This document shows positions 12,793 to 63,416 of a stretch of 64,000 nt of DNA, one piece after another. The notes beneath the pieces are model-generated. The model saw only the letters and a program-made list of their open reading frames with translations. It ran no database searches and had not been told where the DNA came from. The first letter of the stretch is position 1; each line of letters begins with the position of its first letter. Source of the DNA: Verrucomicrobiota bacterium (GTDB lineage Bacteria > Verrucomicrobiota > Verrucomicrobiia > Limisphaerales > UBA11358); the NCBI GenBank assembly GCA_049523555.1, contig JBEKMU010000013.1, forward strand, positions 2,707 to 66,706, read 5' to 3'. Position numbers and translations under genes: made by a program.

Positions 12793-12861
12793 CAACGCAA
12801 AGGCGCAAAGAAGCAAAGTCGCCAGGAGAAGAAAAATCTTTGCGTCTCTGCGTCTTGGCGT
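12793..12861. repeat. Imperfect inverted-repeat (hairpin) element in the cimA-valS gap
   Basis: CAACGCAAAGGCGCAAAGAAGCAAAG ... CTTTGCGTCTCTGCGTCTTGGCGT. The arms are reverse-complementary with a few mismatches. Confidence 0.7.
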
Positions 12862-12870
12862 CAAATTCCC

Positions 12871-15800
12871 ATGAGTGAAATTCCCAAGGCCTACGAACCG
12901 CAAGCAGTCGAAGACAAGTGGTACCAGTTCTGGCTCGACCAGAAGTGCTTCGTCGCCGATGCGCAGTCGAAGAAGCCTGCTTATTCCATTGTCATCCCGC
13001 CGCCGAATGTCACCGGCATGCTCACGATGGGCCACGTCCTCAACAACACCATCCAGGACATCCTCGCCCGCAAAGCGCGCATGGACGGCAAGGAGGTCCT
13101 CTGGCTGCCCGGCACCGATCACGCCGGCATTGCCACGCAGACGGTGGTGGAACGCACGTTAAAAAAGGCCGGTGAAATCAAACATCGTGACGATTTGGGC
13201 CGCGAAAAATTCCTCGAACGCGTCTGGCAATGGAAGGAAAAGCACGGCGGTATCATCATCCAGCAATTGAAGAAGCTCGGCGCGTCGTGCGACTGGACGC
13301 GTGAACGGTTCACCATGGACCCGGAATATTCGCGCTGTGTCCAGAAGGTATTTGTGGAGCTTTACAAAAAGGGCCTTATCTATCGCGGCAAGCGCATGGT
13401 GAACTGGGACCCTGCCGCCCGCACCGCGCTCTCCGACGAGGAAGTCGAAATGATCGAGGAAAAGGGGCACCTCTGGCACATCAAATATCCGCTGCTCGAC
13501 GACCAGGGCCAACCCAAGGCTGATGAATTCGTGGTCGTCGCCACGACCCGCCCGGAAACGATGCTCGGCGACGAAGCGGTGGCAGTGAATCCGTCCGACC
13601 CGCGTTACACGAAGCTGGTCGGGCGGAAGGTGCTGTTGCCGCTCCAGAACAAGCCCATCCCGGTCATTGCTGACGCACTGGTGGACCCGAAGTTCGGTAC
13701 CGGTTGCGTGAAGGTGACGCCCGCACACGATCCGGCCGACTACGAGATAGCGCTACGGCACAACCTGCCGATCACCGTCGTCATCGGCCTCGACGGCCAC
13801 ATGACGCCGGCCGCCGGCAAGGAGTTTGAGGGCTTGAACCGTTCGAAAGTGCGCCAGGCCGCAGTCGAGAAACTGACCGAGCAGGGCTTGTTGCTGAAGA
13901 CCGAGGATTACGTCCACAATGTCGGTTACAGCCAGCGCAGCCATGTGCCCATCGAACCGTATCTGAGCGAGCAATGGTTTTTGAAATATCCAAGCGTGGA
14001 AAAATCGCGGGCGTGCGTGGAGCAAGCCGACGTCGGAGGGGCGAGTTCCACGAGCCCCACTTCAAGTCAGGGCGTCGCAGAGCTCCGCCCTCCGAAAGAT
14101 GGGAAAATGCAGTTCCATCCGCAGCGCTGGGCGAAGGTCTATGACCACTGGATGGGCAACATCCAGGACTGGTGCATCAGCCGCCAGCTTTGGTGGGGAC
14201 ACCGGATTCCGGTGTGGACTCTGGCGTGGAATGACGAATGTGCCGGCGGTGCAATTGAAGAGGAAGAATTTTTGATGGGTATCAATGCATGGGTGAAGGA
14301 AGTCGGTTTAGTTGGCAAACTTGAAATTCACATCGCCCGTGATTTGCCCTATACAGCTCGCATTTTGACATTGGACTCGGAAGCGGATGCTCGTCTGGCA
14401 GAACTGGCTGAAGTCGCAAGCAAACATGATGAACAAGCTTCGTCTGAGTATGAAGCGCGCTTTACGACAGAAGCGAAGATTCTTTACACGATTGATACAC
14501 TCACCCAAGACCCCGATGTGCTCGATACGTGGTTCAGCTCCTGGCTCTGGCCGTTTGCGACGATGGGCTGGACGGGTGACAAATCCCAGGACTCCAACAA
14601 CCCAACACTCCGGGCCTTTTATCCGACCACCGACCTGGTCACCGGGCCGGACATCATTTTCTTCTGGGTCGCGCGCATGATTATGGCGGGCTACGAATTC
14701 ATGGGGGATTTGCCGTTCCGGAACGTCTATTTCACCGGCATCATCCGCGACAAGCAGGGCCGCAAGATGTCCAAGAGCCTCGGCAATTCGCCTGACCCGC
14801 TCGACCTCATCGCCAAGTTCGGCGCCGATGCGCTCCGGTTCGGCACCATGCGCAGCGCGCCGCTTGGTCAGGACATTTTGTTCGACGAACAAAACGTCGA
14901 GTTGGGCCGCAATTTCTGCAACAAGCTCTGGAACGCCTGCCGCTTCCGCCAGATGGTCGGCAGTGCCGACTTCCCAATTCAGGGGGAGATTAATCCAAAA
15001 CTATTAACGTCAGACGACAAATGGATTTTGCTCAAGCTCGATCAGGCGATTCGTGAAATGAACACCGCATTCGCCGAATACAAATTCAGCGACGCGACGG
15101 CGACGCTCTACCGCTTTTTCTGGAGCGAGTATTGCGATTGGTACGTCGAGGCGAGCAAAGCTGTGCTGTCGCACAGCGTTGAACCGTTAAAACGCGAAAC
15201 CGTTGAATCGGCCACCGGTTCAACGATTCAACCTTTCAACGATTCAACGGCTCGCAAAGCGAATACTCTGGCCGTGATTGATTTTGTTCTCTCGCATACG
15301 CTGCGGCTGTTTCATCCGTTTCTGCCGTTCATCACGGAGGAACTCTGGCATGGGATGGGTTATGCCGAGGACATGCCACAAGATCAGGGCGGCAAAACCA
15401 TCATGTTCGCGCCCTGGCCGAAGCCGCTCGGCGACGATTTCAAATCACACTACGACCTGACCGAACAGGACGAAAAACACATCGAAGCCCGCAACGAATT
15501 TGTCACGCAAGGCCGCAATCTGCGCCGCACGGCGAACATCGCCGCGAACAAGAAGGTCAAATTCATTCTCAAACCGGCGCGCGAATTGCCGGCTCACGAC
15601 CTCGAAGTGCTAAGGCTGTTGCTGAATGCCGAGGCGGTCGAGGTGAACACGAATTTTCAGCCGGCAAAAAACACGATGACGGTGCGCACCGCGTTGGGCG
15701 ATTTGTTTCTGCCGCTGGAAGGTTTGATTGACATCGAGGCGGAAAAAGCGCGGCTGAAAAAGGAGTTGGAAAAAATCGAGGCCGAGACCGCCAAAGTCGA

Positions 15801-15933
15801 ACAGAAGCTGGCCAACCCGAACTTCACGCAAAAGGTTCCAGCGCAAGTCTTGGAGGAACACAAGCAGCGTCTCGCCGAGTGGCATGGCAAACGCGACCAC
15901 GTGAAATCCGCACTGGCCGCCCTGCAAGGTTGA
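12871..15933 (+). CDS. valS: Valine--tRNA ligase
   Basis: MSEIPKAYEPQAVEDKWYQFW start, the class I HIGH-type motif PPPNVTGMLTMGHV and KMSKS (RKMSKSLGN). A C-terminal coiled coil is present. The ATG at 12871 lies inside ORF 12697..15933. Confidence 0.95.
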   Translation: MSEIPKAYEPQAVEDKWYQFWLDQKCFVADAQSKKPAYSIVIPPPNVTGMLTMGHVLNNTIQDILARKARMDGKEVLWLPGTDHAGIATQTVVERTLKKAGEIKHRDDLGREKFLERVWQWKEKHGGIIIQQLKKLGASCDWTRERFTMDPEYSRCVQKVFVELYKKGLIYRGKRMVNWDPAARTALSDEEVEMIEEKGHLWHIKYPLLDDQGQPKADEFVVVATTRPETMLGDEAVAVNPSDPRYTKLVGRKVLLPLQNKPIPVIADALVDPKFGTGCVKVTPAHDPADYEIALRHNLPITVVIGLDGHMTPAAGKEFEGLNRSKVRQAAVEKLTEQGLLLKTEDYVHNVGYSQRSHVPIEPYLSEQWFLKYPSVEKSRACVEQADVGGASSTSPTSSQGVAELRPPKDGKMQFHPQRWAKVYDHWMGNIQDWCISRQLWWGHRIPVWTLAWNDECAGGAIEEEEFLMGINAWVKEVGLVGKLEIHIARDLPYTARILTLDSEADARLAELAEVASKHDEQASSEYEARFTTEAKILYTIDTLTQDPDVLDTWFSSWLWPFATMGWTGDKSQDSNNPTLRAFYPTTDLVTGPDIIFFWVARMIMAGYEFMGDLPFRNVYFTGIIRDKQGRKMSKSLGNSPDPLDLIAKFGADALRFGTMRSAPLGQDILFDEQNVELGRNFCNKLWNACRFRQMVGSADFPIQGEINPKLLTSDDKWILLKLDQAIREMNTAFAEYKFSDATATLYRFFWSEYCDWYVEASKAVLSHSVEPLKRETVESATGSTIQPFNDSTARKANTLAVIDFVLSHTLRLFHPFLPFITEELWHGMGYAEDMPQDQGGKTIMFAPWPKPLGDDFKSHYDLTEQDEKHIEARNEFVTQGRNLRRTANIAANKKVKFILKPARELPAHDLEVLRLLLNAEAVEVNTNFQPAKNTMTVRTALGDLFLPLEGLIDIEAEKARLKKELEKIEAETAKVEQKLANPNFTQKVPAQVLEEHKQRLAEWHGKRDHVKSALAALQG

Positions 15934-15966
15934 TTCTGAACTGAACGTTGGCCGTGGTAAACATAG

Positions 15967-16066
15967 CGGCAGAGGCCCGCCGCACTCCAAGACCTGTCGG
16001 AAATTCCGACGGTCCCCCCCCCGCATCGCGCATCAGCGTCTTGGACTGCGCCAGCCCCCTGGCGCT
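15967..16066. repeat. ~100-bp composite inverted repeat downstream of valS
   Basis: Arms GCGGCAGAGGCCCGCCGCACTCCAAGAC and GTCTTGGACTGCGCCAGCCCCCTGGCGC. An inner hairpin GTCGGAAATTCCGAC and a C9 tract are also present. Confidence 0.65.
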
Positions 16067-16162
16067 TTGGGAGGTTGTTATGGCAATTTCACCCGGATTT
16101 TGTGCGGATTTCAAAACCACTCCTCGACGGCGTTGCAGTTCTTCGCTTAAGCTCGCGCCCGC

Positions 16163-17875: not shown

Positions 17876-17887
17876 CAACCCGATTTT

Positions 17888-18736
17888 ATGAAAGCCCTAT
17901 TATTGAATAAATCACTGGCCGTGGCCGTCAAAGCCGCGCGCGCCGCGGGGAAACTCATGCGCGACAACTGGCACGCGCCCAAGCGCGTCAACGCCACCGA
18001 TGCCCACGACATCAAGCTTGAACTCGATGTGCGCAGCCAGAAACTCATCGAAAAAAACCTGTGTGCCGCGTTTCCAAAAATTCCTTTGCTCGGCGAGGAA
18101 GGTTGCACGGGCGACATGAACGCCGAATATCGCTGGGTGGTGGACCCGATTGACGGCACGGTGAATTATTTCCTTGGCATTCCGCACGCTGCCGTATCTA
18201 TCGCTTTGCAGCGGTGGGGCGAGAGTCTCTCGAGCCCCGACTCAAAAACAAAAAAATCAGGGCTCGACAGAGTCTCGCCCCACCAAAATTTTGAAACAAT
18301 CCTCGGAGTAATCTATGGTCCGTTCACGGATGAACTCTGGACGGTGATTCGCGGCGGGCCGACGCGATTGAATGGGTGCGTCGTCCGTGTCAGCCGCCGC
18401 CAAAACCTGAAGGAGGCCGTCGTGGCCATGGGCTTTTCCAAGAGCAAACAAAACCTGGCAAAAAGCCTGCCGCACCTGAACCGGCTTTCCCGGCGCACGT
18501 TGAAAATGCGCATCATGGGTTCGGCAGCGCTCGAACTTGCCTACGTCGCCTCCGGCCGCCTCGACGCCTACATCGAGCGCACCATCAATTTGTGGGACAT
18601 CGCGGCGGGCGCATTGATGGTTGAATGTTCCGGCGGCGAATTTTACACCCGGCCCGCGCCGGGCGGGAAACTCCGGATGATCGCCAGCAACGGCCTGCTC
18701 CGCCGGAAACTTCAGCTTGGAAACTTGCTGAAGTGA
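17888..18736 (+). CDS. Inositol monophosphatase family protein (SuhB-like), with a repeat-derived internal insert
   Basis: Motifs LLGEEG and WVVDPIDGTVNYFLGIPHAAVSIAL, and a C-terminal WDIAAGALMV. Confidence 0.85.
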   Translation: MKALLLNKSLAVAVKAARAAGKLMRDNWHAPKRVNATDAHDIKLELDVRSQKLIEKNLCAAFPKIPLLGEEGCTGDMNAEYRWVVDPIDGTVNYFLGIPHAAVSIALQRWGESLSSPDSKTKKSGLDRVSPHQNFETILGVIYGPFTDELWTVIRGGPTRLNGCVVRVSRRQNLKEAVVAMGFSKSKQNLAKSLPHLNRLSRRTLKMRIMGSAALELAYVASGRLDAYIERTINLWDIAAGALMVECSGGEFYTRPAPGGKLRMIASNGLLRRKLQLGNLLK

Positions 18737-18766
18737 ATTCAGGTCGGGACGCGCGGTAGCGCAGCC

Positions 18767-19579
18767 CTACCGCAATTTGTTCGCGATGAAAAATGCCTTC
18801 AATTTTTCCAACGCCCGGGCGCGATGGCTCAATTTGTTTTTCACGTCTTCGCCCAGTTCGGCAAACGTCTGCTCGAAACCAACCGGCACAAACAGCGGGT
18901 CGTAACCAAAACCGTTTTGGCCGCGTGATTCAAAATTCATGCGGCCTTTGCAAACCCCATCGAACAATTCCGTTTGCATCTCGAATTCATCCGCGTAGCA
19001 AACCGGCGACGCATTTTCGATTTTTTCAGGCAGCACCGGCGTCAACGCCAACACGCAATGAAACCGTGCGGTGCGCTTCTCCAACGGAACGTTCTTGAGC
19101 AGGCGCAACAATTTGGCGTTGTTGTCGGCGTCGGACGTGTTGCCGGACTTCGCCGAATCCAGCGCGGCAAAGCGCGCCGAATGCACGCCCGGTGCGCCGT
19201 TCAACGCGTCCACCTCCAAACCGGAATCGTCGGCGAGCACGAATAACTTTGAACCCTGAACTGTGAACCCTGAACCCTGAACATTGGAAAGCCAGCGCGC
19301 CAGTTCAACGGCTTTTTTTGTCGCGTTGCCGGCGAACGTGCCGGCGTCCTCGACGATTTTCGGCGCGCCGGGAAAATCGTTGAGCGTGAGAAACTGAAAC
19401 CGGCCGCCGAGGATGGCGCGGATTTCGCCTGCTTTGTGGGCGTTGCGCGTGGCGATGAGCAGCGTAATCACGTCCGCACAATAACAGGCGGGAAATTGGA
19501 TTGGCAGCCGCAAACTTTGGCCGGCCTGAACATTTTTTGGCAATTCTTTATCCGAAATGGTCAAAACGGGCCTGTCCAC
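18767..19579 (-). CDS. rdgB: Non-canonical purine NTP pyrophosphatase (RdgB/HAM1 family)
   Basis: LLIATRNAHKAGEIRAILG, LADDSGLEVDALNGAPGVHSARF and GFGYDPLF. The start is ambiguous: GTG at 19579 (longest ORF) or GTG at 19470 just before VITLLIATRN. Confidence 0.85.
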   Translation of the reverse strand: MDRPVLTISDKELPKNVQAGQSLRLPIQFPACYCADVITLLIATRNAHKAGEIRAILGGRFQFLTLNDFPGAPKIVEDAGTFAGNATKKAVELARWLSNVQGSGFTVQGSKLFVLADDSGLEVDALNGAPGVHSARFAALDSAKSGNTSDADNNAKLLRLLKNVPLEKRTARFHCVLALTPVLPEKIENASPVCYADEFEMQTELFDGVCKGRMNFESRGQNGFGYDPLFVPVGFEQTFAELGEDVKNKLSHRARALEKLKAFFIANKLR

Positions 19580-19713
19580 TTGTCTCCGAAGATTCTGCGC
19601 CTAGTGTCAGGAAGTGAACGCACCAGCCGGTGTTTGCCGGGTGACAACGGCCATCGTTCGCGAAACGAAACTGATCGAAAAACTGCCAAGCGCTGAATCA
19701 AACTTTTCTTGAT

Positions 19714-20661: not shown

Positions 20662-20665
20662 AGCC

Positions 20666-22255: not shown

Positions 22256-22258
22256 ATC

Positions 22259-23185
22259 TCAGGTAGGGAGCGTTCTCCGAACGCGCCGCGGCTCGTCCCA
22301 ACAAACTCCAATCAAGGCCGCGCCGATGACGCCGGCGGAATCGCCGAGCTGGTGTTTGACGATGGGCGTTTCCAGTGAATCACTGAAAACCTGGCGGGCG
22401 ACTTCCGCGACGCCTTCCGTGTAAAGCGCATCGAAATTGGAGACGCCTCCACCGAGCACGACCACGTCCGGGTCCAACACGTCAATGAGATTGGCCAGTG
22501 ACCGGCCGAAATTGCGGAAGAACGTTTTTATGAATTCCGCAGCCTTCGGTTCGCCGGTGCGGTAATCCTTCACGATTTCCTTGAACGGCCGTTTCGCGCC
22601 GAACTGTTCGGCGTAGCGCGCCTCCAATCCGCCGCCGCTGATGAACGTCTCCACGCAACCGCGCTGGCCGCAGTAGCACAGCGGGCCGTCCGGGGCGATG
22701 GACATGTGGCCCCATTCACCGGCGATGGCTTGCGGGCCGGTGATGACTTCGCCCTTGTGAACAATCCCGCCGCCGCAACCCGTGCCCATGATGACGCCGA
22801 AGACCAGTTTCTTGCCCCGGCCCGCGCCGTGCAACGCCTCAGCCAGGGCAAAACAATTCGCGTCGTTCTGGATTTCGATTTTCCGGCCAAGCATCCGTTT
22901 GAGATCCGCCTTCAACGGCCGGCCGTTCATGCAAACGGTGTTGGAATTTTTCAGCAGGCCGGTGCGCGGGGAGATGGCCCCGGGCGTGCCGATGCCGAAT
23001 GTGTGCGGCTGGCTTTGAATGTGTGCGGCGAGTTCGTCGTGCAGTCCTTTGACGCGATTCAGGATGTGGGCATAACCCTTTTCCTGCTGCGTATCCACGC
23101 GCTTGCGGAGAAGTTCCTTGCCTTGGGCATCGAGAACAATGCCTTCGATCTTGGTGCCGCCGAGGTCTATGCCGATGCGAAACAT
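22259..23185 (-). CDS. ROK-family sugar kinase (NagK/N-acetylglucosamine kinase-like)
   Basis: MFRIGIDLGGTKIEG, NDANCFALAEA, and the zinc motif GEWGHMSIAPDGPLCYCGQRGCVETFISG. It looks collinear with E. coli NagK from memory. The ATG at 23185 lies inside ORF 22259..23221. Confidence 0.85.
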   Translation of the reverse strand: MFRIGIDLGGTKIEGIVLDAQGKELLRKRVDTQQEKGYAHILNRVKGLHDELAAHIQSQPHTFGIGTPGAISPRTGLLKNSNTVCMNGRPLKADLKRMLGRKIEIQNDANCFALAEALHGAGRGKKLVFGVIMGTGCGGGIVHKGEVITGPQAIAGEWGHMSIAPDGPLCYCGQRGCVETFISGGGLEARYAEQFGAKRPFKEIVKDYRTGEPKAAEFIKTFFRNFGRSLANLIDVLDPDVVVLGGGVSNFDALYTEGVAEVARQVFSDSLETPIVKHQLGDSAGVIGAALIGVCWDEPRRVRRTLPT

Positions 23186-25347: not shown

Positions 25348-25352
25348 AGACG

Positions 25353-25450
25353 AATGGAGTAATGGAGTGTTGGGGCGATGGAGTATTGGGTTCACGCGCA
25401 AGCATGTCAGGCCTTTCCATCACTCCATCACTTCAATACTCCACCATCCC
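25353..25450. repeat. AATGGAGT-type inverted-repeat hairpin element
   Basis: Left arm AATGGAGTAATGGAGTGTTGGGGCGATGGAGTATTGGG. Right arm CATCACTCCATCACTTCAATACTCCACCATCCC. It belongs to the same family as 37952..38030. Confidence 0.8.
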
Positions 25451-25459
25451 GTGTTTCCC

Positions 25460-30165: not shown

Positions 30166-30315
30166 CTCTTGCTCGACGGACGAATTGTGAGGCGCCCGGA
30201 ACGTTCTTGGGGCAACAGACCCGCGGTTTTCATAGGGCAAGGAACATGGTTTCCCCCTCAGCCCGGTTGCCCATCGCCGCGGCGTTGTGGGAGCTGTAAA
30301 ACCAGAGGATCCTGG

Positions 30316-30345
30316 AATAAAAAGGCGAACGGTCTCCCGTTCGCC
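30316..30345 (-). terminator. Rho-independent terminator downstream of ahcY
   Basis: On the minus strand, GGCGAACGG-GAGA-CCGTTCGCC is followed by TTTTTATT. It lies about 40 nt after the ahcY stop. Confidence 0.75.
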
Positions 30346-33296: not shown

Positions 33297-34229
33297 ATGT
33301 CCTCAACCCTGAAATCATTGCGGGCTTTGTCCGACCCGACGCGGCTGCGCATCGTGGCGCTGCTGGAGCGGGATGAATTGTCCGTGCACGAGCTGCAGGA
33401 AATCACGCGGCTCGGCCAGTCACGCATTTCCACGCATCTCGGCCTGCTGCAGGATTCGGAACTGGTACAATCGCGGCGCGACGGCAAACGGACGTTCTAC
33501 AAGCTGAACCCGGCTGCGGATGGCGCCGCGCGCGAATTCATCCAACTGGCCATTCGCGGCGCGAAGGAACTGCCCGAGCACGCAGGCGACCAGATCAATC
33601 TCAAGCGCATCCTCGGCCGCCGGCGCGAACAAGCACAGGTCTATTTCAATCAGGTTGCCGGCCGGTTCGACCGCGTTTATGGTCCCGGCCGTTCGTGGCA
33701 GGCCTTTGGGCATCTGCTGTTGCGGATTTTGCCGCCGCTGGTCGTGGCCGACCTCGGCGCGGGCGAAGGCCTGTTGAGCGAACTGCTCGCGCGCCGCTGC
33801 AAAAAAGTCATCGCCGTGGACAACTCGGAAAAGATCGTCGCCTTCGGCGCGGCGAAGGCAAAAAAGAACGGGTTGAAAAATCTGGAGTTCCGCCTCGGCG
33901 ATTTGCAGAACCCACCCATTGAAGCCGGCAGCGTTGACCTGGTGATTTTGAGCCAAGCATTGCATCACGCCGAAGCCCCGTCCGCGGCAATTGCCGCCGC
34001 AGCCAAAATCCTTCGCCCGCACGGGCAAATCATCATCCTCGATTTGCTCAAGCACAATTTTGAGAAGGCGCACGGGCTTTACGGCGACCGTTGGCCGGGC
34101 TTTGCCGAGAGCGATTTGCAGCGCTGGCTGGAGGAGGCGGGTTTCAGGAAGATCGAAATCAGTGTCGTCGCCCGCGAGGAATCGCCGCCGCATTTTCAGA
34201 CCATTCTGGCGGGCGGGGAAAAAACGTAG
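33297..34229 (+). CDS. ArsR-family wHTH fused to a class I SAM-dependent methyltransferase-like domain (SahR-like regulator)
   Basis: LSDPTRLRIVALLERDELSVHELQEITRLGQSRISTHLGLLQDSELV (ArsR HTH). VVADLGAGEGLLSELLARRCKKVIAVDNS (SAM-binding motif I). The ATG at 33297 lies inside the TTG-started ORF 33270. Confidence 0.8.
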   Translation: MSSTLKSLRALSDPTRLRIVALLERDELSVHELQEITRLGQSRISTHLGLLQDSELVQSRRDGKRTFYKLNPAADGAAREFIQLAIRGAKELPEHAGDQINLKRILGRRREQAQVYFNQVAGRFDRVYGPGRSWQAFGHLLLRILPPLVVADLGAGEGLLSELLARRCKKVIAVDNSEKIVAFGAAKAKKNGLKNLEFRLGDLQNPPIEAGSVDLVILSQALHHAEAPSAAIAAAAKILRPHGQIIILDLLKHNFEKAHGLYGDRWPGFAESDLQRWLEEAGFRKIEISVVAREESPPHFQTILAGGEKT

Positions 34230-34292
34230 GACAGGCGTCGCGCCTGTCTCCATTTTCTCCTAACGTTGAGACAGGCTGGAAGCCTGTCCTAC
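34226..34292. repeat. 67-bp REPIN-like inverted doublet (GTAGGACAGGC...GCCTGTCCTAC)
   Basis: Arms GTAGGACAGGCGTCGCGCCTGTCTC and GAGACAGGCTGGAAGCCTGTCCTAC with a 17-nt spacer. It exactly fills the convergent gap between the regulator gene and leuS. The regulator's TAG stop lies inside the terminal GTAG. Confidence 0.85.
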
Positions 34293-34295: not shown

Positions 34296-37136
34296 TTACG
34301 CCACGGCGATGTTCACCAGTTTTTTCGGCACGACGATGACTTTCCTGATCGTCTTGCCGGCCAGGAACGGCTTCACTTTTTCAGAGGCGCGAGCAGCGGC
34401 TTCGAGCGCGGCATTGTCAGCGTTGGCCGGGACTTTGATGACGTCGCGCAACTTGCCGTTCACCTGCACGGGAATTTCCAGTGTGTCCTCGACGAGCAAC
34501 GTTGCATCAAACTTTGGCCAGCAGGCGTAAGCCAGCGCGATTCGATGTTGGATGTTCGATGTTGGATGTTCGATGTTCAGCTTTTCCCACAACTCCTCCG
34601 CCAAGTGCGGCGCGAAAGGCTGGAGTAGAATCAAAAAATCGCGCAGCACCACAACCGGCTTTGTTTCCCAGGTGATGGCGTCGTTTACAAAGACCATCAG
34701 CGCCGAAATAGCCGTGTTGAAACGAAAGCCGTCCAAATCCGCCGTCACCTTTTTGATGCAGGCGTGCAACGTTTTAAGCTGCTCGCGCGCCGGTTCGACA
34801 TCTTTAATCGAGCCGCTGAGTTGGATTTTTTTGAGCAGTTCTGGGCCTTTCTGCGGCTGAATTGTTTCCGCCTGCTCGAATTCCGTTTCAGATTTTTCGT
34901 CCACGAACAGCCGCCAGACGCGGCCGAGGAAACGATAAACGCCTTCGACGCCCTTGGTGCTCCACGGCTTGACCATTTCAAGCGGGCCCATGAACATTTC
35001 GTAAAGACGCAACGCATCCGTGCCGAAATCTCTCAAAACATCATCGGGGTTCACCACGTTGCCGCGCGATTTGGACATTTTCTGGCCGTCCTCGCCGAGA
35101 ATCAGTCCTTGATTGACGAGCTTGAAGAACGGTTCGGGCGTCGAGACGTAGCCGAGGTCGAACAAGACCTTGTGCCAGAACCGTGCGTAAAGCAGATGTA
35201 ATACGGCGTGCTCGGTACCGCCGACATATAAATCCACGCCTGGAGTCGTGGACTTGGAGTCTGGGGTCTGGGATTTCGGTTCTTGGGAACCCATCCAATA
35301 TTGCTCCGCCTCCTTGCCGACGAACGATTGCGCATTCTTCGCGTCGAGGTAACGCAAATAATACCAGCAACTGCCGGCCCATTGCGGCATGGTGTTCGTC
35401 TCGCGCTGTGAGCCGTCGGGCAGATTCACCCAATCCTTCGCGCGCGCGAGCGGCGGCTGGCCATCAGGAGTGGGTTTGTAATCGTCAAGCGGCGGCGGCA
35501 AGACCGGCAGCGCGCTTTCGGGCAGGGCTTCGTGATACAAATTTCCAGCGGCATCCTTTTTCCAAATAATCGGGAAAGGCTCGCCCCAGTAACGTTGCCG
35601 GCTGAACAGCCAGTCGCGGAGTTTGTAATTGATGGTTTTCTTTCCAAGGCCTCTCGATTCGAGCCAAGCGGTGATTTTCTTTTTGGCTTCGGGCGTGGGC
35701 AGGCCGGTGATGGAAATCTCCGGCCCAGTGGAATTCACCGAAGTGCCGTCGTCCACGAATCCGCGCCAATCTGTCTTCTGGTCGGGTGGCTGAACGACTT
35801 GAATAATGGGCAGGTTGAATTTGGTGGCGAACTCGAAGTCGCGCGTGTCATGTGCCGGCACGGCCATGATGGCACCGGTCCCATAGCTGGCGAGAACGTA
35901 ATCAGCAATCCAAATGGGAATTTTTTCTCCGTTGACCGGGTTGATGACGTAAGCACCGGTGAAGACGCCAGTTTTCTCTTTGGCCAACTCGGTGCGTTCG
36001 AGGTCGGACTTCTTGGCAACGTCGGTTTTATACTTGGCAATCGCGGCGCGCAGTTCCGCAGTGGTAACTTGGTCAACGAGTTTGTGTTCCGGCGCGAGCA
36101 CCATGTAAGTTGCGCCGAAGAGCGTATCGGGTCGCGTAGTAAAAACTTCGATGAAGTTTGCAACGTCTGAAAACTGAACATTTGAAACTTGAAATCTCAC
36201 TGTGGCACCTTCGCTGCGACCAATCCAGTTCCGTTGCATTTCCTTGAGCGAATTGCTCCAGTCAATCGTGTCGAGGTCGGTGAGAAGTTTCTCGGCATAG
36301 GCGGTGATGCGGAGCATCCATTGGCGCATCGGTTTGCGGGTGACGGGAAATCCGCCGACTTCACTCTTGCCGTCCACAACTTCTTCGTTGGCCAGCACGG
36401 TGCCAAGTTGCTCGCACCACCAGACGGGTTGTTCGCTGACGTAGGCGAGGCGTTTTGAGTCGCGGTAGGCGCGGCGGCGGGCTTCGAGGTCTTGTTCGTC
36501 AGTAGGGCCGACCTGCCGGTCGGCCTGGACGCGCGGCAGCGCGTCCCTACCGGAAAGTTCCGCCGGATACTTCAGCGTCTCAATCGGCTCGGCCTTGTTC
36601 GTTTCCGGATTGAACCACGAGTTGTAAAGCTTCAGGAAAATCCACTGGGTCCACTTGAAATAATCGGGGTCGGTGGTGGCGAGTTCGCGCGACCAATCGT
36701 AACTGAAGCCAAGCGATTGAATCTGGCGCTTGAACGTGGCGATGTTGGCCTCGGTGGTCTGGCGGGGGTGCAGGCCGGTCTTGACGGCATATTGCTCGGC
36801 GGGCAGGCCGAAGGCGTCCCAGCCCATCGGATGCAGGACGTTGAAGCCGAGCGCGCGCCGGTAACGGGCGAGGATGTCCGTGGCGGTGTAACCTTCCGGA
36901 TGCCCAACGTGCAAACCCGCGCCGCTAGGATACGGAAACATGTCGAGGATGTAAAATTTGGGTGGCAACTGCGTGGCGGCCACCTTGCCGGAAAGACGAT
37001 GGCGTTTGGCGAAAGGGTGCCCGTCCGGGAGGACTTCGCCCGGATTAAACGCGCGAAAGGTCTGCTGTTCGTTCCAAAATTGCTGCCACTTAGGTTCAAT
37101 CAAATGAAACGGATATTGCCTGCGGCTGCTCGACAT
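34296..37136 (-). CDS. leuS: Leucine--tRNA ligase
   Basis: [23 protein letters not shown] (HIGH region), KMSKSRGN, and the CP1 editing domain. It is 946 aa, longer than usual because of several inserts. Confidence 0.97.
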
Positions 37137-37953: not shown

Positions 37954-38030
37954 GGAGTAATGGAGTAATGGAGTAATGGAGTGTTGGAAATCTTTTTCGG
38001 TGCCGCACCACTCCACCACTCCATCACTCC
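37952..38030. repeat. AATGGAGT-type inverted-repeat hairpin element (second copy)
   Basis: ATGGAGTAATGGAGTAATGGAGTAATGGAGTGTTGG ... CCACTCCACCACTCCATCACTCCG. It fills the birA-coaX gap. Confidence 0.8.
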
Positions 38031-38032
38031 GT

Positions 38033-39016: not shown

Positions 39017-39084
39017 ATCGTCCTCGTCGTCGTCCTCGTTCTCGAAATCGAATCATCGAGGAGAAGGACGAGAATGAGGACGAT
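39017..39084. repeat. GTCCTCGT-type inverted-repeat hairpin element
   Basis: ATCGTCCTCGTCGTCGTCCTCGTTCTCG ... CGAGGAGAAGGACGAGAATGAGGACGAT. It fills the nadC-birA gap. Confidence 0.8.
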
Positions 39085-47426: not shown

Positions 47427-47847
47427 GACATGCTATCTAATCATTGTGCCAGGTTTCAGTCAATTCCGATTTGACAACCGAAAGGTTTTAATGCAAGTTT
47501 GGCCTGTAAGACACCCCGCTTCGGCGGTGGTGTCTTTTTTTATGCTGTATAATCCGAATCAAAGTTTCGCCTATCCTCAAACGGATAGCGGTGCTGGGGG
47601 CATGAACAACATTCTGTCTTTGCTGCAATCTCTGATGCAGATGAAAAACGCCCTTGGCGTTCAAAACCAGCCGATAAGTGCGGGGCGACCTGCGGGAGCA
47701 ATGAACAAACCAACATCAAATCAAGTTCCCGCCAGCTTTACTGACGATATGTTTGTTGGCGCATTAGGACAGCCAGCCTCGATAATGTCACCTGACGCGG
47801 TTGCTGCTTTAGGTGAGTACTTTGATTTCTGCTTCACGATTTGGATG

Positions 47848-47897
47848 GTAGGGCCGCGCTGCTGCGCGGCCTCGGACGACCAGCAGGTCGTCCCTAC
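47848..47897. repeat. 50-bp GTAG...CTAC double-hairpin REP-like element
   Basis: GTAG-GGCCGCGCTGCTGCGCGGCC-TC-GGACGACCAGCAGGTCGTCC-CTAC. Its architecture matches the element inside leuS at 36502..36550. Confidence 0.85.
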
Positions 47898-48734: not shown

Positions 48735-48807
48735 GTAGGGCGGGCAGTCCTCTGCCCGCCGCTCATCCTCACAACGATTGCGGCGCGCACGGAGTGACGC
48801 GCCCCAC
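48735..48807. repeat. Inverted doublet of REP-like hairpins between convergent genes
   Basis: GTAGGGCGGGCAGTCCTCTGCCCGCC is on the plus strand. GTGGGGCGCGTCACTCCGTGCGCGCC is on the minus strand. Confidence 0.75.
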
Positions 48808-50691: not shown

Positions 50692-52272
50692 TTACCGCGC
50701 TCGCTTGCGTGTGAAGACCAGCAAGTTGGCATCCGCCACTTCGTTCGTTGCCAGCGGCTCCGACCAATGGCCTCCCTGTTTGTCAGTCACATAGCCGCCG
50801 ACGAGAACGTAATCCTGCTGCAAAAATTGATCCAAGAATTCATAAAATCCTGGCGGAGTTCCCACTTGCCATAACCAACTGTTTGCTGTCGGCGTGAAAA
50901 CAATCAGTTTCGGCGGGTATTCCTGCAAGTCGTCAATGGCTTCGCGCTGATATTTTCGCGCCACAGCGGTCGGTATCATCAGCGGATAAACGGTTATGAA
51001 TCGTGTATGGCTGAAGCGCTGGGCGTAATAAAGAATTTGCGGCTCGGAACCGGCGACGAAAACAAAATCGTTGGGCGAGCTTAATTCAGCCATGCGCTTG
51101 GCAACCACTGGCGAGCTGAAGAATGGGAACCCGTCCATTTTCACTTCCGCAAACCGTTCGCGCGTGCATATCAGCCAGGGCACATCGGAACGGATCACCA
51201 GAAGCACGACCGCAGCCGTGAGCAAACACCCGGTCCATCGGGCCGGTCGCGCCGACCATTCAGTGATGCGCGAAGCGAGGGCGCAGATGCCAACGGCGCT
51301 CAACAACGCCCAGAACGGCATTATCACAATATAATATTGCGGGTATCCACTCGCACCGGTCGCAAAAATTGCGCTGACGAACATGCCCAGCCAGAACCAG
51401 ACGCGCGGTCCTGGTTGCAACCAGGCGGCCCACGGGACAAAAAACAAAATCCACCAGTTGGTCCAAAAAGTTCCAAACCTGGACCAGAGGTAGGTCATGC
51501 CAAAATTATTTGATGTCACATAGTAGCGGTTGAACAGCACCGTGCATTCCCATAACCGCGCACCGCCGTCGTGGGCCAAAAAAAATCCCAATTCCAAAAT
51601 AGACGCCAGCAACGCGCCCAGAACCACCGCCAGCCAGCTTTGGCGTAACAATCTCGCGTTATGCGTCTGCCGCCACTGCTCGACCGACCAAACCGCAAAA
51701 ACGAACACAAGCACTGGTAGCGAGGTGTATTTGTAACACAACGCCGTCACACCCAAAAACCCCGCCGCCAGCCAGTATTTTGGTCTGTGGCCGCGATGCC
51801 GGCTGCGGATGTAAACGGTGATGGTTGCCAGCAGCGGCAGCAACATGAACATTTCCGTGTTGGCGGTGAATTCATCAATGCCGGGCAGTAGGATCATCGG
51901 CGTCGCCAGCCACATTGCCGGCAGGGCAAAGCCTTTTCCGAACTCCAGCCGCGCGATGTATCCCAGGAAAACCGTCGCCAGCGCCACGAACACATACGCC
52001 AGCAAACGCGGTGCCCAGAAAACATCCGGCAAAAGCAGGTTGGCAAGCGCGTAACTGTAGATGATCATTGGCGGCTTTTGGATGAAAGCGTGTTGGTATG
52101 GCGCAATACCGTGAATCAGAAGCTGGGCGGAATAGGCGTATTCCCCCTCGTCGCGAATCAACGGCGCATTGCAACTGTTCCAGCGTAGCGCAATGAACAG
52201 GAAACCGATTCCCAGAATTCCCAGCCATCTGCCCGGATGTCCGCCGCCGGGAAATGAGGTTTCTGTTTTCAT
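50692..52272 (-). CDS. Polytopic membrane glycosyltransferase, GT39/ArnT-like
   Basis: 12 or more TM helices. The first-loop acidic motif is RDEGEYAYSAQLL. A soluble domain follows at the C-terminus. Assigned from topology and motif only. Confidence 0.6.
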   Translation of the reverse strand: MKTETSFPGGGHPGRWLGILGIGFLFIALRWNSCNAPLIRDEGEYAYSAQLLIHGIAPYQHAFIQKPPMIIYSYALANLLLPDVFWAPRLLAYVFVALATVFLGYIARLEFGKGFALPAMWLATPMILLPGIDEFTANTEMFMLLPLLATITVYIRSRHRGHRPKYWLAAGFLGVTALCYKYTSLPVLVFVFAVWSVEQWRQTHNARLLRQSWLAVVLGALLASILELGFFLAHDGGARLWECTVLFNRYYVTSNNFGMTYLWSRFGTFWTNWWILFFVPWAAWLQPGPRVWFWLGMFVSAIFATGASGYPQYYIVIMPFWALLSAVGICALASRITEWSARPARWTGCLLTAAVVLLVIRSDVPWLICTRERFAEVKMDGFPFFSSPVVAKRMAELSSPNDFVFVAGSEPQILYYAQRFSHTRFITVYPLMIPTAVARKYQREAIDDLQEYPPKLIVFTPTANSWLWQVGTPPGFYEFLDQFLQQDYVLVGGYVTDKQGGHWSEPLATNEVADANLLVFTRKRAR

Positions 52273-55319: not shown

Positions 55320-55320
55320 T

Positions 55321-57189: not shown

Positions 57190-57200
57190 TACTGTTTAAC

Positions 57201-57328
57201 CACGGATGAACACGGATGGACACGGATAAAATTCGTAGCAGCCGAGGTAACGAGGCTCTGACTTGCATCACGCATCACGCAACACGCATCACGGCGCAGA
57301 AAAGTTAGAGCCTCCTCACGTCGGCTGC
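57201..57328. repeat. Composite repeat block in the nuoL-nuoK spacer
   Basis: Three 10-mers CACGGATGAA/CACGGATGGA/CACGGATAAA. The inverted pair GTAGCAGCCGAGGTAACGAGGCTCT ... AGAGCCTCCTCACGTCGGCTGC. A CACGCATCA-type tandem lies between the arms. Confidence 0.8.
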
Positions 57329-57359
57329 CGCGGGTTAAATGGTTTGTTTCGCTCATGCG

Positions 57360-57665: not shown

Positions 57666-57669
57666 ATCT

Positions 57670-57768
57670 TGATTGAATCGTTGAATCGTTGAACGGTTGA
57701 ACGGTTGAATCGGCGAAATTCGATGTCGCCGCGCCGGTTCAACGATTCGACGCTTTTAACGATTAAAC
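57670..57768. repeat. GTTGAATCG/GTTGAACGG-type inverted-repeat element in the nuoK-nuoJ spacer
   Basis: TTGAATCGTTGAATCGTTGAACGGTTGAACGGTTGAATCGGCG ... CGCCGGTTCAACGATTCGACGCTTTTAACGATTAAACG. Confidence 0.8.
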
Positions 57769-57774
57769 GAACCT

Positions 57775-58284: not shown

Positions 58285-58295
58285 GTTTTCCCGCG

Positions 58296-59914: not shown

Positions 59915-59915
59915 T

Positions 59916-61664
59916 TTAGATTTTCACCGTCGCGCCCGTGTCACCGAGGCCCGCCCACGTCAAACCGTCGAACGCGGGCACGTCCTTCGCCATTTCGTTG
60001 AACAAACCCTCGATCGTCAGGAAACCGTCCTGGCCGGTGACGTTGTAAACCAAATCGTGCAAAAACTCCCACTCGGGCCGCGCGTCGCCGGGCGCCTCGA
60101 CCGCCTTCATGAATTTCTGAACGCGGCCTTTCGTGTTTGTGAACGTGCCGCGTTTCTCGACGTGCGCGCAGCCGGGCAAAAGGTAATGCGCCAGCTTCGT
60201 CGTTTCGTTCGGCAAAATGTCGCTAACGATGAGCGTGTCCAGTTTGCCGAGCAATTCGACGTCAATGCCGTTCTTGGTCACGTCCTCGCCGAAAACAATG
60301 AGTGTTTTGATTTTGCCGGCCCGGATGAATTCGGCGATCGGCCGCATTTTGATGCCCACGCTCGCCTGGCAAATGCCGATGAGCCGGGCACCGGTCTTGT
60401 TCGGATTGCGGTCGGCGTTCAGCAACAGCTTGTCGCCTTCGCCGAAACGTCCGACGGAATCGGTCATTGCCCCGAACTTGTCAGCCAGTTTTTTAAGCAG
60501 CCACAATTCCTCGTTCGTCTGCCGGGCCGAACCGATGATGGCGACCGAACCGTGCGCGGCCCGCTTAAGCTTCTCCGCGATTTCCGACAGTGCGGCAGTC
60601 CACGTTGTCTTTTGTAGGACAGGCATCTTGCCTGTCTCTGACTTTTCTTTAGATGGAGACAGGCTGGAAGCTTGTCCTACATTACGAATCAAGACGTCCT
60701 TCAAGCGATCTTCCCGACCGATCCACTTGTAGTTCAAGCGACCGTAATCACACATCCATGGACCGTTGACGGCGTCGTTCTCCCGGGGCGTGTAGCGGTA
60801 AACTTTTTCTTCGCGCGAGCCGATGATGATGTTGCAGCCGGTCGCGCAACTCGTGCAGATGCTCTTGGTTTCCTTGAGGAACCACACGCGCATTTGGAAA
60901 CGGAAATCCTTCGACGTGAGCGCGCCGACGGGACAAATATCCACAGTGTTCAGTGTGTAGTTGTTGTCGAATACCTTGCCCGGATAGGCGGTGAGCGTGC
61001 TGTAGCTGCCGCGATTGACGATGCCGAGCGCGTCGTCGCCCGCAATGTCCTTGGTGAACCGGATGCAGCGTGTGCAAAGGATGCAACGTTCGTCGTCGAG
61101 CACGATGCGCGGCCCGAGGTCAACCGTCTTGGGCTTGTGCACCTTCGGTTCCACAAAGCGGCTCGCGCTCTGGCCGTAATCCACCGAATATTCCTGCAGT
61201 TTGCATTCGCCCGCCTGGTCGCAAATCGGGCAATCGAGCGGATGGTTGATGAGCAGGAATTCCAGCACGCCCTCGCGCATTTGTTTCACGCCGGGTGTGT
61301 TCGTGTAAATTTCCATGCCGGGCGAAATCGGCGTGGCGCAGGCGATGGCTGGACGCGGCGATTTCATGATTTTCGGCGTGCCGTCGGGATTCAAAATCGG
61401 TTTGCGGTCCGGACCGAGCGCCGGTGTGCCGTACTCCACGAGGCACATGCGGCAATTGCCCGCTACGGGCAACTTCGAATGATAGCAATAATGCGGCACA
61501 TCCACCCTAGCCAGCTCGCACGCCTGAATCATCGTGGTGGGCGTCAACTTGCCGGACCAGTCCGCCGTGAGGCGCGGCACCTCGATTTCGCGCCCGTCCA
61601 CCTTCACCTTGATCTTTCCGACTGGTGGCGCGGGCTTCGTTTGCGTTGTGGCTGCGGTTGACAT
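59916..61664 (-). CDS. nuoG: NADH-quinone oxidoreductase subunit G (short form) carrying a repeat-derived in-frame insert
   Basis: The N-terminal 2Fe-2S/4Fe-4S motifs are CYHSKLPVAGNCRMCLV, HPLDCPICDQAGECKLQ and CILCTRCIRF. A molybdopterin-like domain follows. Confidence 0.93.
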   Translation of the reverse strand: MSTAATTQTKPAPPVGKIKVKVDGREIEVPRLTADWSGKLTPTTMIQACELARVDVPHYCYHSKLPVAGNCRMCLVEYGTPALGPDRKPILNPDGTPKIMKSPRPAIACATPISPGMEIYTNTPGVKQMREGVLEFLLINHPLDCPICDQAGECKLQEYSVDYGQSASRFVEPKVHKPKTVDLGPRIVLDDERCILCTRCIRFTKDIAGDDALGIVNRGSYSTLTAYPGKVFDNNYTLNTVDICPVGALTSKDFRFQMRVWFLKETKSICTSCATGCNIIIGSREEKVYRYTPRENDAVNGPWMCDYGRLNYKWIGREDRLKDVLIRNVGQASSLSPSKEKSETGKMPVLQKTTWTAALSEIAEKLKRAAHGSVAIIGSARQTNEELWLLKKLADKFGAMTDSVGRFGEGDKLLLNADRNPNKTGARLIGICQASVGIKMRPIAEFIRAGKIKTLIVFGEDVTKNGIDVELLGKLDTLIVSDILPNETTKLAHYLLPGCAHVEKRGTFTNTKGRVQKFMKAVEAPGDARPEWEFLHDLVYNVTGQDGFLTIEGLFNEMAKDVPAFDGLTWAGLGDTGATVKI

Positions 61665-61669
61665 GGCTA

Positions 61670-63103: not shown

Positions 63104-63110
63104 GGCTAAT

Positions 63111-63251
63111 CGCGTGATGCGTAATGCGTGATGCGTGAAAAAGTCGGGCAGGCGTCTCGCCTGCTCGCGCCGAGCGAAGCAAGGCAGGGAGATAGAAATG
63201 CCAAATGCTCGCGCTGATGCGCTCGCCGGGCAGGCGAGACGCCTGCCCTAC
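63111..63251. repeat. GTGATGCGT tandem plus 109-bp REPIN-like inverted doublet in the nuoF-nuoE spacer
   Basis: CGCGTGATGCGTAATGCGTGATGCGTGA. Then GTCGGGCAGGCGTCTCGCCTGC (63143..63164) and GGGCAGGCGAGACGCCTGCCCTAC (63228..63251). The arms are near-perfect reverse complements. Confidence 0.85.
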
Positions 63252-63304
63252 GTTGCCGGCTTGACTGGCCGATGAAACCCTTTAGCCTAGCCAACGCTCC
63301 GGCT

Positions 63305-63378
63305 TGCCCGATGGTGTAACGGTAGCACAGCAGACTCTGGATCTGTTTGTCATGGTTCAAATCCATGTCGGGCAGCCA
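63305..63378 (+). tRNA. tRNA-Gln (anticodon CTG), CCA-encoded
   Basis: I folded the cloverleaf by hand. Acceptor TGCCCGA/TCGGGCA has 7 perfect pairs. D arm is GTG-TAACGGTAG-CAC. Anticodon stem is GCAGA/TCTGT with loop CTCTGGA. Variable loop is 4 nt. T arm is CATGG-TTCAAAT-CCATG. Discriminator G is followed by CCA. U1-A72 and G73 fit Gln identity. Confidence 0.9.
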
Positions 63379-63387
63379 ACTTGCCAA

Positions 63388-63416
63388 GGCTGAAGGCTGA
63401 AGGCTGAAGGCTGAAT
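63388..63416. repeat. Heptamer tandem repeat (GGCTGAA x4)
   Basis: GGCTGAAGGCTGAAGGCTGAAGGCTGAA lies immediately downstream of the tRNA and upstream of the nuoE stop. Confidence 0.85.

Follow-up and report, generated by a model that had tools for sequence, protein, structure and literature searches.

REP-type doublets and a second population of hairpin repeats in 64 kb of a Verrucomicrobiota genome

The Hairpin Elements and the Genes around Them

The stretch of DNA considered here, hereafter the window, comprises 64,000 nucleotides of contig JBEKMU010000013.1, which belongs to the metagenome-assembled genome (MAG) of an uncultured member of the Verrucomicrobiota. It has a G+C content of 57% and is densely filled with housekeeping genes, and a Pfam map places along it cimA, valS, a kefB-like gene, suhB, rdgB, an ABC/FtsX exporter, ahcY, metK, leuS, coaX, birA, nadC, pta, pyk and the nuoE-N operon. 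Between and within these genes lie two populations of short hairpin-forming repeats, 28–110 nt long: units of the repetitive extragenic palindrome (REP) type, here called class I, and hairpins whose arms are built of tandem k-mers, here called class II. An earlier sequence-only reading had sorted such repeats into at least six families (F1 to F6 below) and had likened them to the inverted REP doublets (REPINs) that are mobilised in Proteobacteria by REP-associated tyrosine transposases (RAYTs). The observation is real, yet it was partly misdescribed: the comparison with a REP/REPIN–RAYT system finds support for families 1–3 and none for families 4–6. The best overall explanation, held with a probability of about 0.7, is that class I constitutes a REP/REPIN–RAYT system and class II a second hairpin population. 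The elements are as follows, where L001 is a contig of an independent metagenome assembly and sites A to C are three positions within valS.

Class I elements and associated arrays
14031–14105: F3 REP doublet with units at 14033–14058 (+) and 14070–14095 (-), in frame in valS (site A), encoding VGGASSTSPTSSQGVAELRPPK
14956–14970: 15-nt perfect palindrome GTCGGCAGTGCCGAC at valS site C, a probable single REP-like unit or remnant
18213–18284: F3-like doublet (GGTGGGGCGAG...CTCGCCCCACC), in frame in suhB, detected by inverted-repeat scans
18743–18770: single REP hairpin, GTCGGGACGCGC-GGTA-GCGCAGCCCTAC, between the convergent suhB and rdgB/ham1
22263–22302: GTAGGG-tagged unit overlapping the 3′ end of a ROK kinase gene, present in L001
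34226–34292: F1 REPIN (GTAGGACAGGC-N5-GCCTGTC, spacer, inverted copy), filling the convergent gap between an ArsR-methyltransferase gene and leuS
36502–36550: F2 double hairpin (GTAGGG...CCCTAC), in frame in leuS, encoding 17 residues, present in L001
39753–39824: F3 REP doublet, in frame in nadC, encoding RRGERCEPPKSQNESGRRGTPPSE
47848–47897: F2 double hairpin upstream of a CT398-like gene; it may lie in a small unannotated open reading frame (ORF)
48735–48807: heterodimer REP doublet (GTAGGGCGGGC...GCGCCCCAC), with the CT398-like gene on one side and a small, convergent ferredoxin-like gene on the other
57200–57227 and 57230–57336: composite of a (CACGGATG)n array and a GTAG-tagged hairpin with 35-bp arms, between nuoK and nuoL
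57266–57293: (TCACGCA)n array in the loop of the GTAG-tagged hairpin 57230–57336
60614–60680: F1 REPIN, in frame in nuoG, encoding VGQASSLSPSKEKSETGKMPVLQ
63113–63138 and 63143–63251: (CGTGATG)n array followed by a class I REPIN made up of GTCGGGCAGGCGTCTCGCCTGC, a spacer of 59 nt and an inverted copy that ends in CCCTAC, between nuoE and nuoF

Class II elements and a composite hairpin
12795–12861: hairpin with arms (GCAAAG/GCGCAAAG), filling the cimA–valS gap
15168–15250: F5 hairpin with arms (GTTGAAYC), in frame in valS (site B), encoding about SVEPLKRETVESATGSTIQPFNDST
15965–16074: composite hairpin (F6c of the sequence-only reading) in the valS–kefB gap
25353–25450: F4 hairpin with arms (ATGGAGTR), between the genes of an ABC ATPase and an FtsX permease
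37952–38033: F4 hairpin, filling the birA–coaX gap
39017–39084: hairpin with arms (GTCCTC/GTCGTC), filling the nadC–birA gap
57670–57768: F5 hairpin, filling the nuoJ–nuoK gap
63279–63415: class II-like arms around a tRNA-Gln(CTG) gene, with CCTTTAGCCTAGCC to its one side and, to its other, a (GGCTGAAG)n array (63386–63415)

The excess of such structures over chance was estimated with two inverted-repeat scans: the gapless one found 19 long hairpins, against 1–3 in five Markov shuffles, and the one that tolerated G-T pairs found 11 non-overlapping hairpins, against 2 by chance. Folding gave a strong hairpin or inverted doublet at every position that had been listed before. The F1 copies at 34226–34292 and 60614–60680 are 79% identical over 68 nt, and the F1 unit pattern, with up to three mismatches allowed, has six matches in the window where none is expected. 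Pairing of the two F3 doublets was likewise borne out (four units against 0.05 expected), with the left boundary of the first copy (F3a) moved from 14043 to 14033. The F4 and F5 pairs were confirmed by repeat comparison within the window, and the two F2 double hairpins, F2a (36502–36550) and F2b (47848–47897), can be read from their sequences as relatives by a like architecture, a reverse-complement relation and compensated stem-pair swaps. Since an Rfam scan of the window returned one tRNA and otherwise no match, the hairpins are taken to be real, repeated and not members of known RNA families. A sliding 80-nt minimum-free-energy scan was rejected as a detector, as real and shuffled distributions were alike and the elements could not be separated from GC-rich coding sequence. 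Three elements had been missed by the earlier reading, namely the suhB doublet, the valS palindrome and the GTAG-tagged hairpin 57230–57336, along with the k-mer arrays at 57200–57227, 57266–57293, 63113–63138 and 63386–63415.

The elements had been taken to be intergenic and to fill most of the larger gaps from 12.8 kb onward. Many are indeed intergenic; seven, however, lie in frame inside valS (three), suhB, leuS, nadC and nuoG, and about a third of the window's hairpins are in frame within essential genes. The in-frame class I elements number five, plus the probable REP-like remnant in valS, whose open frame (12697–15933) has two of the previously listed elements in frame inside it. With the start of coaX corrected, about 11 of the 22 gaps of at least 25 nt in this part of the window hold an element, which is half rather than most of them. 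The filled gaps are co-directional or convergent and the divergent promoter gaps mostly lack an element, a distribution that agrees with that of REPs in the survey of Di Nocera, De Gregorio and Rocco (2013, PMC3733652). Class I is not confined to extragenic DNA as classical REPs are; intragenic GTAG REPs are documented in the same survey, and intragenic placement is therefore no bar to REP membership.

In several proteins the inserts interrupt otherwise recognisable homology. The Pfam Inositol_P match is split at the suhB doublet, the alignment of NadC to solved structures breaks exactly at the insert 39753–39824, and NuoG can be aligned to solved NuoG/75-kDa subunits only as far as residue 328, the start of the insert. 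The peptide encoded by F1 (VGQASSLSP...ETG..PVL) occurs in NuoG here and at ValRS site C in other genomes. Other length excesses relative to Pfam or Protein Data Bank entries, in NuoH and Ham1, were considered and proved to be ordinary small lineage-specific loops without hairpin elements. At gene ends, the stop codon of the ArsR-methyltransferase gene (+ strand) is the TAG of the F1 REPIN's GTAG (34226–34229), and the final 14 residues and stop of the ROK kinase are encoded by the REP unit (22259–22302); a REP-supplied stop in the one and REP-supplied C-terminal residues in the other imply that the elements remodel C-termini.

Class I Units and the RAYT Transposases of Related Genomes

Class I comprises families 1–3 of the sequence-only reading and the suhB element. 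Its unit, 23–26 nt long, consists of a GT(A/C)GG tag, a 5–7-bp stem, a 4–11-nt loop and the complementary stem, and the units are mostly paired as inverted doublets, which fold as a whole at -35 to -74 kcal/mol. All copies of F1 and F3 in the window are doublets, and the 64 kb contain two F1 doublets, 2–3 F3-type doublets and about six F2-type units. The units of F1, F2 and F2d (63143–63251) begin with GTAGG or GTCGG and those of F3 with GTCGG, TTCGG or ATCGG, and the tag stands next to the palindrome likewise in the units of two related loci, L158 and L247. Families 1–3 carry GTAG/GTCG tags; the GTAG...CTAC termini described earlier are not present in families 4–6. The subtypes F2a and F2b, and F3 a and b, differ by compensated stem pairs (GGGGC/GCCCC versus GGGCG/CGCCC, and inner stems ACC/GGT versus CGC/GCG); REP sub-families with compensated stem pairs are described in the literature (PMC3733652).

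The same units flank transposase genes in related DNA. Locus L158 encodes a 163-residue ORF with HUH and Tyr motifs that scores 84.9 bits on the NCBIfam profile NF047646 (“REP-associated tyrosine transposase”, curated cut-off 80 bits); its upstream unit is exactly the left unit of F3a in the window (TCGGAGGGGCGAGTTCCACGAGCCCC), and an F3 doublet lies downstream. The RAYT of L247 is of the same clade and 87% identical to it, with flanking F3 units that differ by one or two bases, and both loci have the gene order hemN / RAYT / hemY-hemH, a conserved context as expected of a vertically inherited single-copy RAYT. For F1, a 177-residue ORF lies between inverted units in L009, from the cyanobacterium Cylindrospermum, and reaches 31 bits on Pfam Y1_Tnp (cut-off 23) and 94.5 bits on NF047646 (cut-off 80), and the F1-flanked RAYT of L044, from a Verrucomicrobia MAG, reaches 64.7 bits against the cut-off of 80, with the HUH and Tyr motifs present. 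The two RAYT clades have at least 7,905 and at least 965 matches, often named RayT by their sources, and several members come from Verrucomicrobiota MAGs.

Going by these sequence comparisons, the published REP/REPIN–RAYT model is supported for class I. By analogy with characterised REP/RAYT systems, class I would consist of non-autonomous elements that depend on a single-copy gene for a RAYT (a Y1 HUH transposase) in another part of the genome. The enzyme would attach to the hairpin in its folded single-stranded form, recognise the tag and then cleave and reseal the strand, with the spread of copies as the outcome. In vitro, the E. coli enzyme TnpAREP cleaves and recombines bacterial interspersed mosaic elements (BIMEs) (PMC3333891), and the determinants of RAYT recognition are the GTAG motif and the hairpin, which co-evolve with the enzyme (PMC8266576); catalysis on the units of the window and the presence of a RAYT in the source genome are presumed. 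Surviving copies would be those at positions where harm is small, i.e., just after stop codons, between cistrons and in tolerant loops of proteins, and in-frame, stop-free inserts would be read through as 16–25 extra residues. The essential genes are intact with their in-frame, stop-free inserts, which suggests that insertions of any other type are lost and that the inserted codons are translated; any benefit to the host is likewise presumed.

RAYT genes were also met inside and behind host genes. In Verrucomicrobia bacterium Bin_73_16 (VFJO01000280.1; L044:1460–2270), the whole RAYT ORF with its F1 units is in frame inside valS, between HRIPVWYKK and ESPGEGWTQDSD, and the insert is stop-free, so that the translated ValRS would contain a transposase domain in its interior. 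Protein P0182, from another assembly, has a like arrangement at the same site, with a RAYT that is only 51% identical, which suggests that the arrangement is old and inherited. Many RAYT homologues were called as C-terminal in-frame fusions to SpeD (P0154, P0173, P0184), Dtd (P0181, P0212) and XseA (P0216), with linkers that look REP-encoded (EASRLRS, VGQASSLS), and the S-adenosylmethionine decarboxylase–RAYT fusion recurs in several clusters, including contigs of 1–4.9 Mb. These may be real fusion proteins, or stop codons may have been lost to REPs.

Copies in Other Genomes

The elements are not unique to the window; uniqueness was one of the findings that, according to the sequence-only reading, would have refuted it. 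The F1 unit (GTAGGACAGGC-N5-GCCTGTC, 18 specified bases) was sought in 596 Gb of DNA, one genome per species, and was present in at least 118 stretches, against an estimated 17 or so chance matches over the whole collection. Among the matches listed, it occurs in Verrucomicrobiota, Acidobacteriota, Planctomycetota, Cyanobacteria, Chloroflexota, Nitrospirota, Desulfobacterota, Atribacterota and others, many matches are +/- pairs 8–110 nt apart, and some genomes have more than one F1 locus (e.g., Caldilinea DYPX01, CAVRWB01 and CAINDV01). In a metagenome scan, the F3 unit was present in at least 120 stretches on contigs of JGI and ENA; among the matches listed, for 110 of 147 F3 units an inverted partner lies no more than 130 nt away and 49 of the 147 lie in long frames of high GC3 with at least 40 codons on both sides, and the 675 kb of F3-matched stretches hold 211 long hairpins against 9 in shuffles.

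Among the matches listed, the 18 specified bases of the F1 unit are unchanged in genomes assigned to at least ten phyla, while the RAYTs found with F1 units are only 37% identical (L009 versus L044). This would be unexpected if REP and RAYT simply co-diverged within lineages, and would call for horizontal spread or a strong constraint on this unit. Two contigs from MAGs labelled Bifidobacteriaceae (L042, L091) have REPINs of the Verrucomicrobia subtype, with the conserved spacer ends TCTGAC...AGATGGAGA, and are probably mis-binned. A literature search with the literal F1 sequence returned unrelated primers only.

Empty Sites and Turnover in Sister Genomes

A comparison of insertion sites in sister genomes, which the sequence-only reading had proposed as a check, revealed both empty sites and different elements at the same spot (L120, L122, L041, L246). 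Contig L122, which has 84% identity to the window and synteny with it over 641–22255, lacks the F3 insert (72–75 nt) and the F5 insert (66 nt) of valS as clean in-frame gaps. The site A segment of 72–75 nt is absent from L120 as well, and the F5 insert at site B is common to the window, L120 and L121. Site C, with its 15-nt palindrome in the window, is empty in L120; L121 has a complete F1 REPIN there, and L122 a different REP-like hairpin. In suhB, the site of the F3-like doublet is empty in L246 and is occupied by a (GTGACA)n class II hairpin in L121, L122, L244 and L245. The syntenic L041 lacks F2b (47848–47897) and F2c (48735–48807), and its nuoM/nuoN junction contains a REPIN with no counterpart in the window.

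Turnover extends to the intergenic gaps. The gap after cimA, filled here by (GCAAAG)n, holds (AACATCS)n, (AACATTC)n, (CGCAGAG)n or (CACGGATG)n in sisters; most of the valS–kefB hairpin is missing from L122, where an (ACGAAMY)n hairpin takes its place; and in the suhB–rdgB gap L122 has a (CGCGGAGA)n hairpin in place of the REP at 18743–18770. Among 31 ValRS orthologs that are 74–86% identical, about 10, 7 and 12 insert types were counted at the three sites, with 4, 8 and 2 empty alleles, respectively, and the combinations across the three sites form a mosaic. Reoccupation of this kind could reflect selection on tolerated positions, a preference for hairpins already in place, or another cause. 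At the empty-versus-filled junctions of L120, L122 and L041 the flanks have diverged too far for a shared target motif or a target-site duplication to be recognised.

ValRS also has a hypervariable segment of another kind. Residues ~450–545 (14200–14500 in the window, from HRIPVW to QDPD) vary among close orthologs from 0 to ~200 residues and are filled by unrelated modules, including a domain of Pfam PF18798 in some orthologs; the module of the window, ~95 residues, is common to P0005, P0017 and P0033. An AlphaFold2 model of ValRS from the 31-sequence alignment had a mean predicted local distance difference test (pLDDT) score of 53, too poor to place the inserts, and the coil modelled there is given little weight.

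Class II Hairpins

Class II consists of families 4, 5, 6a and 6b together with several arrays that had not been listed. The arms are tandem 6–9-mers (ATGGAGTR, GTTGAAYC, GTCSTC, GCAAAG, CACGGATG, TCACGCA, GGCTGAAG), and every array pairs with a complementary array to form a hairpin. The GTCCTC/GTCGTC family of 39017–39084 also occurs in seven related metagenome loci, and class II families change site: (GCAAAG)n stands after cimA here and after valS in L246, and (CACGGATG)n at 57200 (nuoK/nuoL) here and after cimA in L121. Hairpins with tandem 7–8-mer arms were met in Acidobacteriota, Planctomycetota, Chloroflexota and other loci, too. In the proposed scheme, class II would form dispersed low-copy families in the same kinds of sites as class I. 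The tRNA-Gln(CTG) gene (63305–63378, +) lies on the strand opposite to nuoE and nuoF, between the two, as if in the loop of a class II hairpin.

Weighing the Explanations

Several points weigh against the REP/REPIN–RAYT interpretation or narrow it. Families 4–6 have no GTAG tag, and no Y1 transposase was found beside them in 1.6 Mb of related DNA, a sample chosen for class I patterns. Profile searches with both RAYT clades found no RAYT in the 64-kb window, as the earlier reading had stated, and the closest named RAYT (MGA2280141.1), considered as that of the source MAG, proved to be in a MAG other than the one with the window-identical ValRS (MGA3283473.1). The F3 unit on its own has a stem of only 5 bp. 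Mobility is read from the comparison of presence and absence rather than from witnessed transposition, and repeated use of one codon-level site by different families has not been described for RAYT systems. Finally, folding and G-U counts in 14 oriented elements gave no advantage to the sense strand that would speak for a role at the RNA level.

The hypothesis that the hairpins formed where they now stand, as terminators or as 3′ structures that stabilise mRNA, with convergent similarity, has some attraction: most intergenic copies start a few bases from a stop codon, the divergent promoter gaps are mostly free of elements, a sense-strand T-run follows three copies (34226–34292, for leuS; F2d at 63143–63251; and the second F4 copy at 37952–38033), and sister genomes retain a hairpin at the same gene ends despite changes in sequence. 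Seven copies, however, lie within reading frames, near-identical units stand at unrelated loci in many genomes, and most copies lack a T-run, whereas canonical terminators occur elsewhere in the window; moreover, the antisense strand folds better than the sense strand in 9 of the 14 oriented elements. As a general explanation it is very unlikely, and some copies may be in secondary use as 3′ structures. Intrinsic terminators resemble the elements as GC-rich hairpins directly 3′ of stop codons, a few with a T-run, and differ in that the elements form repeated families that are also found in reading frames and between nuo cistrons; a hairpin followed by a T-run at its 3′ end is not what most of them present. 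Canonical hairpin-plus-T-run terminators are seen at ~30311–30345, downstream of ahcY, and at 47515–47545, in the gap upstream of the CT398-like gene, from which it follows that intrinsic termination of the ordinary kind is in use in this organism besides the repeats. Four orthologous (GTGACA)n copies showed only two covarying pairs, too few to argue for structural selection. That the repeats are artefacts of assembly or binning is hardly conceivable: the source is a MAG, and many public RAYT/REP contigs are short, which suggests that assemblies break at repeats, but the independent JGI contig L001 is 99.96% identical to the window over 18,375 nt that include seven of the elements, the frames of the host genes run intact through the inserts, and several independent assemblies share orthologous inserts.

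For class II, the origin is where the readings part. The hairpins might be made and remodelled in place, by slippage expansion and fold-back template switching, without any transposition; their tandem 6–9-mer arms do vary in copy number and pair in alternative registers, sister genomes at 84% identity have different k-mers at one site, and the missing transposase association in the 1.6 Mb sample chosen for class I patterns fits as well. Such an origin is nevertheless rated quite unlikely, in view of k-mer families that stand at unrelated loci (F4 twice and F5 twice in the window; GCAAAG; CACGGATG) and of which several recur in related metagenome contigs, of a central non-periodic part common to both F5 copies, and of the clean presence or absence of the first F5 copy (F5a) as a unit of 66 nt. 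Possibly, if with the odds against it, class II is mobilised by another enzyme, e.g., a terminal inverted repeat (TIR)-associated Y1 transposase (TIRYT) or an unrelated system, and is a separate type of element that merely shares its insertion niches with REPINs. The lack of a GTAG tag, the Y1 transposases flanked by non-GTAG inverted repeats in moderately abundant families (PMC3733652), and the tandem 7–8-mer-arm hairpins of Acidobacteriota, Planctomycetota, Chloroflexota and other loci speak for another enzyme, and it is opposed by the failure to find a Y1 gene with k-mer arms in the 1.6 Mb, which were chosen for class I and searched with the two RAYT-clade profiles. A bolder proposal, and an unlikely one, is that class II is an unrecognised multi-phylum class of elements, distinct from REPs, which, together with REPINs, compete for actively targeted fixed sites and replace one another there. 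Such sites would include the 3′ ends of genes and, in essential proteins such as ValRS and SuhB, a small number of codon positions, and the targeting may proceed, e.g., via an existing hairpin; if true, hypervariable protein loops and gene ends would be driven by an undescribed hairpin-homing mechanism.

Relation to Known Systems and Significance

The REP/BIME/REPIN–RAYT systems of E. coli, Pseudomonas fluorescens and Stenotrophomonas maltophilia share with class I a GTAG-type tag at the 5′ side of a small hairpin rich in G+C, pairing of units as inverted doublets across a short spacer, and the coexistence of several families, within which sub-families are set apart by compensated stem pairs; RAYT genes flanked by cognate units, in a conserved chromosomal context, are shared as seen in relatives of the window. 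They differ in that the host here belongs to the uncultured Verrucomicrobiota, in that about a third of the copies are intragenic where classical REPs are extragenic, in the GTCG/TTCG tag of F3 in place of GTAG, and in the F1 unit, nearly unchanged across at least ten phyla among the matches listed.

The sequence-only reading had suggested an analogous system in a phylum other than that of the known ones; in this respect it had been anticipated, as GTAG REPs were already described in a verrucomicrobium, Opitutus terrae (PMC3733652), the only one to mention Verrucomicrobia among the papers that RAYT/REPIN literature searches returned. That survey located GTAG-tagged REPs in Proteobacteria, Cyanobacteria, Chloroflexi and the PVC (Planctomycetes–Verrucomicrobia–Chlamydiae) superphylum, and in O. 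terrae found them highly enriched, in several families with degenerate tags, and with the highest intragenic count among the genomes surveyed, mostly as dimers that encode 20–30 residues, sometimes two per gene. It also described REPtrons, including those of O. terrae, as well as Y1 transposases flanked by non-GTAG inverted repeats. By description, the families GTAG-17 to GTAG-20 of O. terrae resemble class I in phylum, in their GTAG palindromes with degenerate tags (GTMG, GTGG), in the coexistence of families, in head-to-head and tail-to-tail dimers, in intragenic inserts and in the presence of REPtrons, and they differ in that the lineage of the window is distinct and uncultured; the families are set side by side by description. 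As GTAG REPs, intragenic ones among them, are known in O. terrae, class I belongs to a known kind. Different REPs at approximately one site were reported in PMC3733652 for one gene pair (Xanthomonas recB), whereas here this applies to three ValRS sites and one SuhB site in many genomes. The basic phenomenon is already published for O. terrae.

Rickettsia palindromic elements (RPE) are alike in being palindromic repeats that lie in frame in protein-coding genes left intact, and Ogata et al. reportedly described in 2000 such palindromes in frame in essential genes, read as an extra peptide. The host there is an obligate intracellular alphaproteobacterium, and the elements of the window do not belong to the RPE sequence families and have no sequence relationship with them. 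RPE in-gene palindromes are also covered in PMC3733652, according to which RPE-1 is longer (100–150 nt), RPE-4/6 have a CGTC tag, and the CGTC repeats as a class have no associated transposase; the elements here are tagged GTAG/GTCG or untagged.

For class II alone, a possible likeness is that of the short tandemly repeated repetitive (STRR) heptamers of cyanobacteria, dispersed tandem repeats on the 7-nt scale. STRR1–3 are tandem heptanucleotide arrays dispersed in heterocystous cyanobacteria, and arrays are said, going by the title of a 1997 paper by Vioque, to occur inside the RNase P RNA gene. The class II arrays differ in that they are always paired with a complementary array, occur in non-cyanobacterial phyla and have other k-mers.

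In this lineage of Verrucomicrobiota, orthologous housekeeping proteins often differ in length through REP-type insertions rather than domain evolution (ValRS ranges from 921 to 1188 residues among orthologs at 74–86% identity), and the elements can lead gene callers to fuse neighbouring genes or to misplace their starts. To what was known, the lineage adds a very high intragenic REP fraction, clean empty-versus-filled sites and a RAYT in a conserved hemN–hemY context, and it offers a natural system for studying the target choice of REPINs and the tolerance of proteins to inserts.

Other Observations in the Window

A protein of 1683 residues is encoded at 3523–8574 (+), with a pro-kumamolisin activation domain, Ig domains, RCC1 repeats and tandem repeats of ~50 residues (LVQGSDGNFYGTT type), and this protein accounts for the large direct-repeat families D1–D6 of the window. 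A PMT-type glycosyltransferase gene at 50692–52272 (-) is absent from the syntenic L041, and in sister genomes the space from cimA to valS contains an inserted PIN-domain pair or PDDEXK_3 gene (L120:2131–2990; L121:2734–2967; L244:6546–6959). In both cases, the differences in gene content coincide with element-bearing gaps.

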